This document shows, in pieces, positions 24,229 through 56,740 of a stretch of DNA of 64,000 nucleotides (position 1 is its first letter; each line of letters begins with the position of its first letter). Location of the stretch: NCBI RefSeq assembly GCF_002854065.1, contig NZ_CP024147.1; one strand, written 5' to 3'. This DNA is from Escherichia coli (GTDB lineage: Bacteria > Pseudomonadota > Gammaproteobacteria > Enterobacterales > Enterobacteriaceae). Below the pieces are notes generated by a model. It searched no databases, was not told where the DNA came from, and worked only from the letters and a program-made list of their open reading frames with translations. The position numbers and the translations under genes are program-made.

Positions 24229-24312
24229 TTAATATCGATTATTTTTCCCGGATGGAAAATTCTTAGAAACCGATCACATACAGCTGCATTTATTAAGGTT
24301 ATCATCCGTTTC

Positions 24313-24399
24313 GCTGAAAAACATAACCCATAAAATGCTAGCTGTACCAGGAACCACCTCCTTAGCCTGTGTAATCTCCCTTACACGGGCTTATTTTTT
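24313..24399 (+). ncRNA. cyaR: CyaR (RyeE) Hfq-dependent sRNA
   Basis: 87-nt sequence gctgaaaaacataacccataaaatgctagctgtaccaggaaccacctccttagcctgtgtaatctcccttacacgggcttatttttt matches CyaR as I recall it, including the terminator hairpin and T-run. Confidence 0.85.
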
Positions 24400-47986: not shown

Positions 47987-48034
47987 ATAAATTCCTAAAG
48001 TTGTTTTCTTGCGATTTTGGGTAATGACTCCAAC

Positions 48035-48538
48035 TTATTGATAGTGTTTTATGTTCAGATAATGCCCGATGACTTTGTCATGCAGCTCCACCGATTTTGA
48101 GAACGACAGCGACTTCCGTCCCAGCCGTGCCAGGTGCTGCCTCAGATTCAGGTTATGCCGCTCAATTCGCTGCGTATATCGCTTGCTGATTACGTGCAGC
48201 TTTCCCTTCAGGCGGGATTCATACAGCGGCCAGCCATCCGTCATCCATATCACCACGTCAAAGGGTGACAGCAGGCTCATAAGACGCCCCAGCGTCGCCA
48301 TAGTGCGTTCACCGAATACGTGCGCAACAACCGTCTTCCGGAGACTGTCATACGCGTAAAACAGCCAGCGCTGGCGCGATTTAGCCCCGACGTATCCCCA
48401 CTGTTCGTCCATTTCCGCGCAGACGATGACGTCACTGCCCGGCTGTATGCGCGAGGTTACCGACTGCGGCCTGAGTTTTTTAAATGGCGGAAAATCGTGT
48501 TGAGGCCAACGCCCATAATGCGGGCGGTTGCCCGGCAT
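48035..48538 (-). CDS. insB: IS1 InsB
   Basis: 167-aa ORF, differs from copy A InsB by one residue (S for R). Confidence 0.85.
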
Positions 48539-48732
48539 CCAACGCCATTCATGGCCATATCAATGATTTTCTGGTGCGTACCGGGTTGAGAAGCGGTGTA
48601 AGTGAACTGCAGTTGCCATGTTTTACGGCAGTGAGAGCAGAGATAGCGCTGATGTCCGGCAGTGCTTTTGCCGTTACGCACCACCCCGTCAGTAGCTGAA
48701 CAGGAGGGACAGCTGATAGAAACAGAAGCCAC
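48457..48732 (-). CDS. insA: IS1 InsA
   Basis: 91-aa ORF identical to copy A InsA. Confidence 0.85.
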
Positions 48733-48787
48733 TGGAGCACCTCAAAAACACCATCATACACTAAATCAGTAAGTTGGCAGCATCACC

Positions 48788-51145: not shown

Positions 51146-52827
51146 GCCTCGTCCCTCCATGGTAGTCGTAACGTTATTCGGGTGTAACTATCAGGCTCAC
51201 AGGCGACGCTTGTTCCATAGTCATCGCCAAACCGTTCACGTAAACGCTTATCCACCAGATTCATCCCCAGCCCACTGGCATTGGTTACCGGTTGATACAA
51301 ACCGGCATTGTCTTCGATCTCCAGCATCAAATGTTGCCCCTCACGTCGGGCGCTGATTGCCACTCGCCCTGTATCCAGCAGTTGTGATGTCCCATGTTTA
51401 ATGGCGTTTTCCACTATCGGTTGCAGGGTAAACGCGGGCAATTGCTGCTGGGATAATTCTTGCGGAATAGCAATGTTGACCTGCAACCGCGACTGGAAGC
51501 GCGCCTTTTCAATTTGCAGATAAGCGTTCACATGTTCAATTTCGTCGGCGAGAGTAACAAACTCCGAAGGCCGCTTTAAGTTTTTGCGGAAAAAAGTGGA
51601 AAGATACTGCACCAGCTGGCTGGCCTGTTCGCTGTCGCGGCGGATCACCGCTTTAATGGTGTTAAGCGCATTAAACAAAAAATGAGGATTCACCTGGGCG
51701 TGAAGCAGTTTGATTTCTGACTGGGTGAGCATCGCTTTTTGCCGCTCATATTGCCCGGCAAGAATCTGCGCCGAAAGCAGTTGCGCAATCCCCTCGCCCA
51801 GCGTGCGGTTTATTGAACTGAATAAACGGTTTTTGGCTTCATACAATTTGATGGTGCCCATCACCCGCTGATTTTCACCACGCAACGGAATTACCAGCGT
51901 CGACCCCAGTTTGCATTGCGGATGCAAAGAGCAACGATAAGGTACTTCGTTGCCATCAGCGTAGACCACTTCACCGGTTTCAATCGCTTTTAAGGTGTAA
52001 GTCGAAGAAATCGGTTTGCCGGGTAAATGGTGGTCGTCACCAATTCCAGTAAAGGCCAGCAATTTCTCTCGATCGGTAATCGCGACTGCACCAATATCCA
52101 GCTCCTGATACAGCACCTGTGCCACTTTCATGCTGTTCACTTCGTTAAACCCCTGGCGCAAAATGCCTTCCGTCGAGGCTGCCACTTTCAGCGCAGTGGC
52201 AGAAAAAGCCGAAGTGTATTTTTCAAACATCGCGCGTTTATCGAGCAATATACGCATAAACAGCGCCGCGCCGACGGTATTGGTGACCATCATTGGCGCA
52301 GCAATATTACTCACCAGACGCACCGCATCTTCATAAGGTCGGGCGATCGCCAGGATGATCAACATTTGCACCATTTCAGCGACGAACGTGACGGCACCGG
52401 CGGTAATGGGGTTAAAGACTTTATCAGTGCGCCCGCGACGGATCAGGATGCTGTGTACCAGGCCGCCGAGCAATCCTTCAACGATGGTCGAGATCATGCA
52501 ACTTAGCGCGGTCATGCCCCCCATCGAATATCGATGTAACCCGCCGGTCAGGCCAACCAGCCCACCGACGACCGGACCGCCGAGTAAGCCGCCCATTACC
52601 GCGCCTATCGCACGGGTATTGGCAATAGAATCGTCAATGTGCAACCCAAACCAGGTGCCCATGATGCAGAAGATGGAAAAGACGATGTAGCAGAGAAATT
52701 TATGCGGCAGACGAACCGTGACCTGCATTAACGGTATGAATAATGGCGTTTTACTCATTAACCACGCAATGACTAAAAAAACGCACATCTGCTGAAGCAG
52801 CAGCAACACCAGATTAAAATCGTACAT
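51142..52827 (-). CDS. btsS: LytS-type sensor histidine kinase BtsS (YehU), pyruvate sensing
   Basis: ORF 51142..52842; 5TM-LytS N-terminal domain, GAF region, His-kinase ([10 protein letters not shown]) and ATPase domains; overlaps the btsR start. Confidence 0.85.
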
Positions 52828-53048
52828 ACCCGCAAACCACACTTCCCTTTAAAACGCGTAACATACATTGCCTGCGTTTAACTTTCTTTGAACTCTTGCA
52901 GAAAAATGAGAATTCGTGAGTACGATCACTCAAAATCGCCTGGCAAAAATAAAATCACCCTATAAATGCACAAAAAACGGGCAAAACTACCTGGTTCGCA
53001 AAACTGCGTCTAAAGTTAAACCGGGACCTCGCGAGCAAGGGTGAGACG

Positions 53049-53780
53049 ATGGCGCTTTACACAATTGGTGAAGTGGCGTTGCTTTGTGATATTAACCCTG
53101 TCACGTTACGCGCGTGGCAGAGGCGTTACGGATTGCTGAAACCGCAACGGACAGACGGCGGTCATCGGCTGTTCAACGATGCCGATATTGACCGGATCCG
53201 CGAGATCAAACGCTGGATCGACAACGGCGTGCAGGTCAGCAAAGTTAAAATGCTGCTCAGTAATGAAAATGTTGATGTGCAGAACGGCTGGCGCGATCAG
53301 CAAGAAACATTACTGACCTACCTGCAAAGCGGCAATCTGCATAGCCTGCGAACGTGGATCAAAGAGCGCGGTCAGGATTACCCCGCCCAGACACTCACCA
53401 CACATCTGTTTATTCCTCTGCGCCGACGGCTTCAGTGCCAACAACCGACTCTCCAGGCGCTGCTGGCGATCCTCGACGGCGTACTGATCAACTACATCGC
53501 CATTTGTCTGGCTTCGGCACGTAAAAAACAGGGTAAAGATGCGCTGGTGGTTGGCTGGAATATTCAGGATACCACCCGTCTGTGGCTGGAGGGCTGGATT
53601 GCCAGTCAACAAGGATGGCGCATTGATGTCCTCGCCCACTCGCTCAATCAACTACGCCCTGAACTGTTCGAAGGCCGTACATTGCTGGTGTGGTGCGGTG
53701 AAAATCGAACCTCCGCCCAACAGCAGCAACTCACCAGTTGGCAGGAACAAGTCCATGATATTTTCCCACTCGGCATTTAA
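53049..53780 (+). CDS. mlrA: MerR-family transcriptional regulator MlrA (curli/csgD activator)
   Basis: 243-aa ORF with N-terminal MerR HTH (MALYTIGEVALLCDINPVTLRAWQRRYGLLKPQRTDGGHRLF). Confidence 0.8.
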   Translation: MALYTIGEVALLCDINPVTLRAWQRRYGLLKPQRTDGGHRLFNDADIDRIREIKRWIDNGVQVSKVKMLLSNENVDVQNGWRDQQETLLTYLQSGNLHSLRTWIKERGQDYPAQTLTTHLFIPLRRRLQCQQPTLQALLAILDGVLINYIAICLASARKKQGKDALVVGWNIQDTTRLWLEGWIASQQGWRIDVLAHSLNQLRPELFEGRTLLVWCGENRTSAQQQQLTSWQEQVHDIFPLGI

Positions 53781-53839
53781 TGATTCGTTAACAAATGCGC
53801 TTTACTGTACAATCCTTTCGTTAACATAAGGAGTGCATT

Positions 53840-53947
53840 ATGCGCATAGCTAAAATTGGGGTCATCGCCCTGTTCCTGTTTATGGCGTTAGGCGGAATTG
53901 GTGGCGTCATGCTCGCAGGTTATACCTTTATTTTGCGTGCTGGCTAA
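53840..53947 (+). CDS. yohO: Small membrane protein YohO (35 aa)
   Basis: ATG at 53840 preceded by aaggag; [35 protein letters not shown]; too short for the ORF track; overlaps the 3' end of yehW convergently. Confidence 0.6.
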
Positions 53948-54659
53948 GCGCCTGCACCAGCCTTTCAAACAGGCGGTCTGCGATGATCGCCGCCAGTGCC
54001 ACCAGTAACGCTCCCTGGATCACATACGCGGTATTAAATCCGCTAAGCCCGATGATGATGGGCGTACCCAGCGTGCTGGCCCCTACCGTTGAGGCGATCG
54101 TCGCCGTACCAATGTTGATAATCACCGAAGTTCGCACGCCCGCCAGAATCACCGGAGCCGCCAGCGGTAGCTCGACCTTACGCAGTCGCTGACCACGACT
54201 CATTCCCATACCCTTCGCAACTTCTGTCACGCTGGCATCAATCGCTCCCAGCCCGGCAAGTGTCGCCTGCAGGACGGGCAGCACGCCGTATAGGATCAAG
54301 GCGATAATCGCTGGTTGCAGACCAAAGCCGATCACCGGAACAGCAATCGCCAGCACCGCAACGGGCGGAAAAGTCTGCCCAACGGCGGCAATAGTTTCCA
54401 CCAGTGGGCGAAATTCCGCGCCCCACGGGCGAGTGACTGCAATTCCGGCACCAGTACCAATGATCACCGCAAACAGACTCGAAATTCCCACCAGCCAGAA
54501 ATGAGCCAGTGCCAGAGCTGCAAAACTTTCTTGCTGATAAACGGGTCGTGGCAGTTGTGGGAACAAGGCAGCAAACAGCGGCTGGCTGTAAGGCAGCCAG
54601 AAAATCAGTGCCGCAAACAAAGCAATGAGCCAGAACAGCGGATCGCGCAACATCTTCAT
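53928..54659 (-). CDS. yehW: Glycine betaine/osmoprotectant ABC transporter permease YehW
   Basis: 243-aa polytopic membrane ORF, ABC permease fold. Confidence 0.85.
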
Positions 54660-54663
54660 ACGC

Positions 54664-55590
54664 TTACGCCTCCACCAGCAGATCCTGAAAATGCAGCGTG
54701 CCGCAAGGCTGGCCCTGCGTGTTCACCACCGGCAGCACCTCGCATCCCCGCGCGACAAACAGAGAGAGCGCATCGCGTAGCGTCATCTCTTCTGCCAGTG
54801 CCTCACCTTCTGCTCGTTCTTCGCGACGCACGTAATCCGCCACACTACGTAACGAAAGCAGGCGCACACCCAGTTCACTACGTCCAAAAAAATGGCGGAC
54901 AAAATCATTCGCCGGACGAGTCAGCATCGTCAGCGGATTGCCCTGCTGCACCACTTCACCGTGATCCATCAATACCAGATGTTCTGCCAGCCGTAGCGCC
55001 TCATCAATATCATGAGTGACCAGCACAATAGTGCGCCCCAGCAAACGGTGAATGCGCGTCATCTCTTGTTGCAACGCGCCGCGCGTTACCGGGTCCAGTG
55101 CGCCAAAAGGTTCATCCATCAGTAAGACTTGCGGATCGGCAGCCAGTGCACGGGCCACTCCCACACGTTGCTGCTGACCACCGGAAAGCTGATGCGGATA
55201 ACGCTCACGCAAATTTGACTCCAGCCCCAGTAGCGCCATTAATTCGTCGATACGATCGTCAATCCGTGCCCGCGACCATTTTTGTAATTGCGGCACGGTA
55301 GCGATGTTTTGCGCCACGCTCCAGTGGGGGAACAGGCCAATAGATTGAATGGCATAGCCCATCCGGCGGCGCAACTCCAGTACTGGCAGCGAGCGAATTT
55401 CTTCTCCGGCAAAGCGGATCTCTCCGCTGTCATGCTCCACCAGGCGGTTAATCATTTTCAGGGTGGTGGATTTACCGGAGCCAGATGTGCCAATCAGCAC
55501 CGAAAAACTCCCTTCCTGAAAATTGAGATTGAGATCGTTAACGGCTTTTTGTGCGCCAAACAGTTTGCTGACATGGCTAAATTCAATCAT
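54664..55590 (-). CDS. yehX: ABC transporter ATP-binding protein YehX
   Basis: 308-aa ORF with Walker A (GTSGSGKST), ABC signature (LSGGQQQRV) and Walker B. Confidence 0.85.
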
Positions 55591-56740
55591 TACGTTTCAC
55601 CTTCAACAGTGCGATAAGTAAATCGAACAGCGCATCGATCAGCACCGCCAGAACAATTACCGGGATCACCCCCAGCAACACTAAATCAATGGCGCTGCTT
55701 AGCAGCCCCTGGAAAACCAGCGCACCAAAACCGCCTGCGCCGATTAACGCCGCAATCACCGCCATGCCTACAGTTTGCACCATCACCACCCGCAGGCTGC
55801 GCAGAAATACCGGTAACGCCAGCGGTAACTGAACATGCAGGAATCGCTGCGCCCCGCTCATGCCCATCGCTCTGGCGCTCTCCAGCACATCGCGCGGGAT
55901 CTGGTTCAAGCCGACTACCACGCCACGCACCAGCGGCAGCAAGGCATAGAGCACCAGCGCAATCAGTGCGGGTGTCATTCCGGTTCCTGCTATGCCAAGC
56001 TTCCCCAGCCACGGAAAGGCCGTAACCAGTCCGGCAAGCGGCGCAATCAGCAGGCCAAAGAGCGCCACCGAAGGCACGGTCTGAATGACATTGAGCAGAG
56101 AAAAAATCGCCCCCTGCCGCGCGGTGGAAAAGTAGCACCAGATGCCCAACGGCACACCAATCACTAACGCAGGCAGCACCGCACCAAACAGCAACGTCAG
56201 ATGTTGTGCCAGCGCGTCGTCAAACACATCCTGACGGTTGGCGTATTCTTTCATTAGTGAGAGATCGTTAAGCGTGCCGGAGTACAGCAACCACAGCGGA
56301 ATAATGGCAATCTGCATATGCAACAACCAGCGCCACAGCGGATGCGTGGAGATTCGGCGGATGGCATCGCTACAGGCCAGCAATGCCAGCGCCGCAGCCA
56401 GCCAGAAACCACTGCCGAGGCTGGTACGCGCCAGCGAACTGCCATTTTGCGCCAGTTGGGTCGCCGCCTTTCCAGCTCCCCACACCAGCAATACGAAGAC
56501 GAATTGCGCCAGAATGAGTGCAAAAATGCTGCCTTTTTTAGCGGGAATAAAACAGGCTGTCAGCCAGGCGCAACCAACGCCCACCAGCATCCAGATCGTT
56601 TGCGGCCACAGCTGCCAGAGATGTCGCCCTTCACCCGAGACTAAACGATTAGGCGCGTAGCTGATAAACGGCAGCGCTGCTGCGATTGCCGTCAGCAACA
56701 GCAGCAGCGCCAGAACAGGATTAATACGTAGATAAGTCAC
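55583..56740 (-). CDS. yehY: ABC transporter permease YehY
   Basis: 385-aa polytopic membrane ORF overlapping the yehX start. Confidence 0.85.

Follow-up and report, generated by a model that had tools for sequence, protein, structure and literature searches.

The 35-codon reading frame at positions 53840-53947 (plus strand) of the window, by which we mean the whole 64,000-nt stretch of Escherichia coli DNA analysed here, is with high confidence best explained as the genuine, translated and evolutionarily constrained gene yohO, coding for a 35-residue protein with a single hydrophobic helix. The gene is already known and annotated and is not a new one, and as yohO has long been listed in E. 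coli and has its own NCBIfam and Pfam families, it matters little as a finding in its own right; YohO belongs to the numerous small membrane proteins of bacteria that have been validated but have no function assigned to them. A glycine-rich half-helix, a private candidate promoter and an overlap with yehW that extends through the whole family nevertheless make a functional study straightforward.

The initial annotation had described a 35-codon ORF with a good ribosome-binding site which encodes a hydrophobic peptide with one transmembrane segment, overlaps the 3' end of yehW convergently and corresponds to a known small protein of K-12, and all of this was borne out. Being 35 aa long, the frame lies under the 60-aa default of the ORF lister, and an ORF listing recovered it, with its ATG start, at exactly the coordinates given above. 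It is preceded by the sequence TAAGGAG, an uninterrupted run of seven bases able to pair with the 16S rRNA 3' end at the canonical spacing, here 6 nt, and it shares its last 20 nt with yehW. The immediate surroundings of the gene are as follows:

53049-53780, plus strand: mlrA, the same-strand neighbour upstream of yohO.
53827-53833, plus strand: Shine-Dalgarno sequence TAAGGAG, with a 6-nt spacer to the ATG.
53840-53947, plus strand: yohO coding sequence, 35 codons plus TAA, with an ATG start; identified by RefSeq annotation, the family NF010225 and purifying selection.
53928-54659, minus strand: yehW, which closes the osmF-yehY-yehX-yehW operon for a glycine betaine ABC transporter.
53928-53947, convergent: 3' overlap of yohO and yehW, 20 nt, with the yehW stop inside the yohO codons F30/I31.

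With respect to the identity of the gene, each of the 12 E. coli genomes among the matches listed carries the RefSeq annotation "yohO: protein YohO". Of 5426 complete E. coli genomes, 5423 contain a match of at least 95% identity to a 401-nt query around yohO, at a median of one place per genome, so that the region is single-copy. Over the tested stretch, identity is 100% with the record of a Gambian stool isolate and 99.3% with a K-12 derivative, and the source DNA is not K-12 itself. The encoded YohO is the same protein in both, the accession WP_001216963.1 being common to the Gambian record and the K-12 derivative J53. In addition, the protein scores 80.1 bits (cutoff 57; E = 8.8e-23) with the NCBIfam equivalog NF010225 ('protein YohO'), residues 1-35 aligning with profile positions 1-35 and thus over the full length. 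A search of a local copy of Pfam returned no family matching YohO, and PF27791 ('UPF0387_membrane') is recorded in the contig index on relatives of the protein.

The yohO reading frame is clearly under purifying selection. Using MlrA as an anchor, 80 syntenic loci were collected from about 20 enterobacterial genera, including Escherichia, Citrobacter, Salmonella, Enterobacter, Leclercia, Kosakonia, Buttiauxella, Atlantibacter and Cedecea, and the addition of the loci L082-L089, in which mlrA is not the upstream gene, brings the full comparison to 88 loci. Each of the 80 anchored loci has a yohO-like frame downstream of mlrA, and when the window is included, 80 of the resulting 81 sequences have their ATG at the aligned position. 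The initial annotation had named conservation of the frame, together with the ratio of synonymous to non-synonymous substitutions, as the way to check the gene, and loss of the frame in relatives as evidence against it; frame and ATG are retained in 87 of the 88 related loci, and 86 of them carry GGAG at a distance of 5-15 nt before the ATG. The sole broken frame of the 88 is that of Citrobacter amalonaticus AUH_CA_2023_1 (L009, about 3292-3400), which has an extra T within a run of Ts. Since the contig concerned is 4.9 Mb in size, this is likely to be a homopolymer error of a long-read assembly rather than a pseudogene.

Substitution patterns were compared by the Nei-Gojobori method over codons 2-28, i.e., the part of the gene outside the yehW overlap. 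For the yohO frame the all-pairs dN/dS amounts to 0.175; the corresponding values are 1.07 and 2.91 for sense +1 and +2, and 1.19, 2.51 and 0.32 for the three antisense frames, so that the yohO frame has the lowest value of the six (about 0.18-0.25 versus at least 0.3 in the other five). Nine species pairs, hand-picked from different lineages and therefore only approximately independent, together differ at 90 of 190 synonymous sites and at 64 of 539 non-synonymous sites (pN/pS = 0.25, binomial P = 2.6e-17), with synonymous sites being near saturation (pS about 0.5-0.6). The constraint differs between the two halves of the protein, as pN/pS is 0.079 for codons 15-28 versus 0.45 for codons 2-14.

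These data bear directly on the simplest alternative, namely that yohO is a chance ORF in the mlrA-yehW spacer which annotation pipelines have propagated. The protein has no assigned function, and as many as 31 ORFs of at least 20 aa overlap the 1.8-kb stretch around yohO, so that ORF length alone says nothing here; it is conservation that makes yohO real. The persistence of frame and start codon in all but one of the 88 loci and across about 20 genera, despite nearly saturated synonymous sites, and the published detection of the protein refute this explanation, the probability of which we consider close to nil. Two other features of the region were dismissed as chance features, an antisense 29-aa ORF (53821-53910, minus strand), antisense dN/dS being no lower than that of the yohO frame, and a promoter-like match on the minus strand (53865-53837).

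A phmmer search over 1.84 billion representative proteins yielded 17 YohO clusters at E <= 0.001, all of them with the common core and many of them truncated or frameshifted variants from E. coli. With only 17 clusters, the family is narrow.

Published observations are in line with a translated membrane protein. Ribo-seq coverage of yohO has been reported, and a secondary citation describes the protein as membrane-bound. Top-down mass spectrometry also detected it, with less than 50% sequence coverage (Mol Cell Proteomics, 2025). In Shigella flexneri, the yohO mRNA is reduced without oxygen (log2FC -2.96) with no significant effect of fnr listed, and the same anaerobiosis data set lists yohO but not yehW, yehX, yehY or osmF. 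The viable reduced-genome strain DGF-298 lacks a 29-kb block that includes yohO, which is therefore dispensable in the laboratory. An unrelated screen that selected clones for growth yielded, among others, an IPTG-induced ASKA clone of yohO, an indirect sign that its overproduction is not lethal. In the papers searched, no function, phenotype or partner of YohO is reported.

Upstream of the gene, the spacer that separates the mlrA stop from the yohO ATG, roughly 60 nt in length, turned out to be unusually conserved in the alignment, with the consensus ggcAtTTAAtg.TtcaTTAACA...gcgcttcac.gTAtAAT...t...tTaACA.aAGGAG. Besides the Shine-Dalgarno sequence it contains three conserved elements:

53784-53793, plus strand: conserved TTCGTTAACA box just past the mlrA stop, around the -35 position of the candidate promoter.
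53808-53813, plus strand: candidate -10 hexamer TACAAT, identified by conservation across the 88 loci.
53820-53826, plus strand: conserved GTTAACA box near the expected transcript start, TTAAC being present here in 66 of 88 loci.

At the -10 position a perfect TATAAT (6/6) is found in 64 of the 88 loci and a 5/6 match in 23, and in 77 loci the distance from the end of the hexamer to the ATG is 25-28 nt. The TTCGTTAACA box has the consensus TtcaTTAACA, of which TTAACA is conserved at 90% or more; the upstream TTAAC is present in 75 of 88 loci and is kept in L086, which lacks mlrA. A scan with the sigma-70 consensus did not flag the -10 element of yohO, which comes without a good -35. The loci that lack mlrA upstream retain a core of the form TTTCAC-NN-TATAAT-N9-GTTAACA-N-AAGGAG, which in L083 and L084 is preceded by a terminator-like hairpin followed by a T-run and in L086 by a GC-rich hairpin. 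Because the core persists behind such hairpins where mlrA is absent, it is very probable that yohO has its own promoter, predicted to start transcription near 53820 and to give a leader of about 20 nt. A terminator scan detected none between mlrA and yohO, and read-through from mlrA into yohO is thus also possible in E. coli.

Of note, the two boxes containing TTAACA bracket the candidate -10 element, lie about 35 nt apart from start to start and occupy the same places in L002-L081. They could constitute an operator for some regulator, and they are unlike the MlrA box. An MlrA box proper in the yohO promoter was considered and rejected: the -10 region of E. coli reads TGTACAAT, which presumably resembles an MlrA half-site, but other genera have CGTATAAT at this place, and the second half-site is missing.

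In the minimum-energy fold of positions 53814-53833, a CCUUU stretch following the -10 element pairs with the AAGGA of the Shine-Dalgarno sequence (z = -0.65 versus shuffled sequences). This pairing would be present in mlrA read-through transcripts only and not in those from the candidate promoter, and it is probably nothing, as the fold is no better than that of shuffled sequences and the segment is poorly conserved. More generally, an RNA element, a terminator or an anti-Shine-Dalgarno hairpin at yohO was rejected, there being no Rfam match, fold z-scores ranging from -1.0 to 0.0, and no terminator-like site.

The YohO protein is strongly hydrophobic, with a GRAVY of 1.58 and a best 19-residue Kyte-Doolittle window of 2.41 (residues 8-26). 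Based on an alignment of 46 orthologues, AlphaFold2 predicts one unbroken helix from residue 3 to residue 34 with a mean pLDDT of 92.6. Orthologues are 35, 36 or 37 aa long, and among 46 distinct orthologue sequences the residues M1, G19, I20, G22, V23, M24, L25, G27, Y28 and I31 are invariant, the protein of the window carrying the full invariant core G19 I20. G22 V23 M24 L25. G27 Y28. M15 and A16 are invariant in the 80 anchored loci, position 5 is K in 77 of them and position 26 is A in 73, and M15, A16 and K5 are each conserved at 90% or more among the 46 distinct sequences. Position 18 is either G or S, Enterobacter, Leclercia and related genera having SGIGGV in place of GGIGGV.

The C-terminal half is accordingly near invariant over residues 15-28 (M15 A16. 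G/S18 G19 I20 G21 G22 V23 M24 L25 A26 G27 Y28), while residues 6-14 in the N-terminal half of the helix are generically hydrophobic and would serve as an anchor. The small residues of the conserved half fall into i, i+4, i+8 stripes, one formed by G/S18, G22 and A26 and the other by G19, V23 and G27, and small-xxx-small stripes of this kind mediate tight helix-helix contacts in membrane proteins. The distribution of charges, R2 and K5 at the N-terminus and R33 at the C-terminus, weakly suggests an orientation with the N-terminus inside. A search of the PDB with the YohO profile at E <= 10 matched no chain, and hence YohO has not been seen as a subunit of any solved complex, which is not in itself evidence that it belongs to none.

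A small and very hydrophobic protein with a single helix, the 3' end of whose gene is covered by transcription of yehW from the opposite strand, might also be a membrane-damaging type I toxin-like peptide of the Ibs, Ldr, Hok, TisB or ShoB kind that is controlled by an antisense RNA. Type I toxin loci are patchy and multi-copy, whereas yohO is single-copy and resides at a fixed locus in essentially every genome. Furthermore, an Rfam search of positions 52000-56000 at E <= 1 gave no match and no antitoxin sRNA family, so that a cognate antisense sRNA is missing and the yehW mRNA is the only opposite-strand transcript to be expected; a strong, unoccluded Shine-Dalgarno sequence together with a consensus -10 element does not fit tight repression; the induced ASKA clone grew; and a search with the PADLOC defence models gave no match to YohO. 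The toxin explanation is thereby largely refuted and has a very small probability.

Elsewhere in the window, the following elements were recorded:

10066-10212, plus strand: SIB RNA (Rfam, full-length, 150 bits), the antitoxin sRNA of an Ibs/Sib type I locus.
24311-24396, plus strand: CyaR sRNA, a match at the Rfam gathering score.
41571-41667, minus strand: TPP riboswitch upstream of thiM, a match at the Rfam gathering score.
43749-44500 and 48005-48760, in direct orientation to each other: two IS1 copies, 4256 bp apart, flanking apbC-metG.
63100-63180, minus strand: Peptidase-S11 RNA motif upstream of pbpG, a match at the Rfam gathering score.

The SIB RNA marks a real small-toxin locus in the same window, in contrast to yohO. 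As seen in the 100%-matching record, the IS1 copies abut a truncated fimbrial gene and a truncated gene for a SWIM zinc-finger protein, on account of which the blocks yehA-E and molR..yehQ, which K-12 carries, seem to have been lost next to IS1 in this strain.

The tail-to-tail arrangement of yohO and yehW is a constant of the family, the yehW stop lying inside the F30/I31 codons of yohO in every lineage examined. Among the 81 sequences comprising the anchored loci and the window, 72 show an overlap of 20, 23 or 26 nt, the remaining nine being cases in which the ORF picker chose a spurious frame or made no call and not failures of the locus. The YehW homologues recovered by a separate search were all close relatives, with 78% identity or more. 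The 26-nt class is due to a 6-nt indel within the overlap, which adds two residues to each protein (YohO, 35 to 37 aa; YehW, 243 to 245 aa); it is found in L026-L061 and others (Enterobacter, Leclercia and Kosakonia type), where YohO ends in ...RGGVG and YehW in ...SRHRREQ.

In the two most divergent YohO clusters (L082-L089), the upstream gene is metG, a gene for an HTH_5 regulator or one for a TonB-dependent receptor. Here, too, yohO (4001-4108, or 3204-3311 in L089) shares 20 nt with a permease gene, the final one in an OpuAC/BPD_transp_1/ABC_tran operon. As the overlap thus persists without mlrA, yohO is tied to yehW and not to mlrA. This tie could reflect a functional link to the transporter, or it may be purely mechanical, given that genes sharing 20 nt are inseparable without damage to one of them.

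Moreover, the terminator scan found none between the convergent genes yohO and yehW and none after yohO, so that their transcripts must overlap. This is the transcript arrangement of a convergent excludon, the two genes sharing 20 nt with no terminator-like site. The published list of 165 convergent excludons in E. coli MG1655 (ExcludonFinder, NAR 2025, PMC12288877) does in fact include the pair, its transcript overlap being detected in at least 50% of RNA-seq samples.

Taken to its extreme, such an arrangement could mean that the protein is incidental and that yohO and yehW matter to each other solely as convergent antisense transcripts, with either gene being down-regulated when the other is on, through transcriptional interference or through cleavage of the duplex by RNase III. 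The 20-nt overlap of the coding sequences lacking a terminator-like site, its geometry being conserved in every lineage examined, and the published excludon (PMC12288877) all speak for it. It leaves the conserved ATG and Shine-Dalgarno sequence unexplained, however, and it conflicts with the selection at the amino-acid level that acts outside the overlap (pN/pS of 0.079 for codons 15-28) as well as with the reported detection of the protein by Ribo-seq and by top-down mass spectrometry. Nor is there a significant RNA structure (z-scores of -1.0 to 0.0) or a match to Rfam. An exclusive role as RNA is therefore quite improbable, and a yohO gene that acts through its protein remains the preferred explanation.

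As to what this protein might do, YohO would be a modulator whose helix packs onto a larger protein of the inner membrane, or else it would associate with further YohO copies, the invariant glycine-rich C-terminal half-helix providing the packing surface. Such a mode of action, suggested by analogy with other bacterial small membrane proteins, is plausible, if somewhat short of an even chance. Expression would probably start from the gene's own conserved -10 element about 26 nt upstream, with read-through from mlrA contributing in E. coli. It is also possible, albeit rather doubtful, that the mRNAs of yohO and yehW act on each other as antisense RNAs in addition to the role of the protein.

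A partner that could be envisaged is the YehW/YehY permease of the OsmF transporter, put forward because yohO stays at the 3' end of yehW when the upstream neighbour changes; it is the best candidate, yet unlikely to be the true one. An equally unlikely extension of this idea would make YohO an accessory of OsmF-YehYXW restricted to the Enterobacteriaceae, which binds YehW/YehY by way of the invariant glycine-rich half-helix and whose gene, on account of the conserved overlap, is transcribed in mutual antagonism with yehW. This would draw on sequence comparisons, in which yohO follows yehW and not mlrA, the family is narrow and the 6-nt indel is shared between the two genes. If it were true, regulator and transporter would be wired together at the level of both RNA and protein. 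Against a link with the transporter counts the orientation of yohO, which lies on the strand opposite to the osmF-yehYXW operon, since a true small subunit, of which KdpF is an example, shares a transcript with its partner.

Compared with known systems, the protein of the window is a member of the YohO/UPF0387 family (NF010225, PRK13681, PF27791), which comprises proteins of 35-37 residues with one hydrophobic helix; at 35 aa it fits this description and agrees with the family in length, core and genomic position without any difference, the family itself being without an assigned function. Beyond its own family, YohO resembles the small inner-membrane modulators represented by the pairs AcrZ-AcrB, MgtS-MgtA, KdpF-KdpABC, CydX-CydAB and MgrB-PhoQ in having fewer than 50 aa, a single transmembrane helix and a strong Shine-Dalgarno sequence, and likewise in its enterobacterial restriction and in the conserved helix face rich in small residues. 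These modulators have partners, whereas YohO is absent from all solved structures, and KdpF and CydX are co-transcribed with the operons of their partners, whereas yohO, being on the opposite strand from osmF-yehYXW, is convergent to that of its candidate partner. With the toxins of the Ibs/Sib, Ldr/Rdl, Hok/Sok and TisB/IstR systems YohO has in common that it is a short, hydrophobic single-helix peptide, but it differs from them in being single-copy, universal, apparently tolerated on overexpression and without a cognate sRNA. Finally, yohO-yehW resembles other convergent excludons, which are defined by mutually exclusive expression, in its 3' overlap without a terminator; in the present pair, one of the partners is a 108-nt gene that is under strong selection at the protein level.
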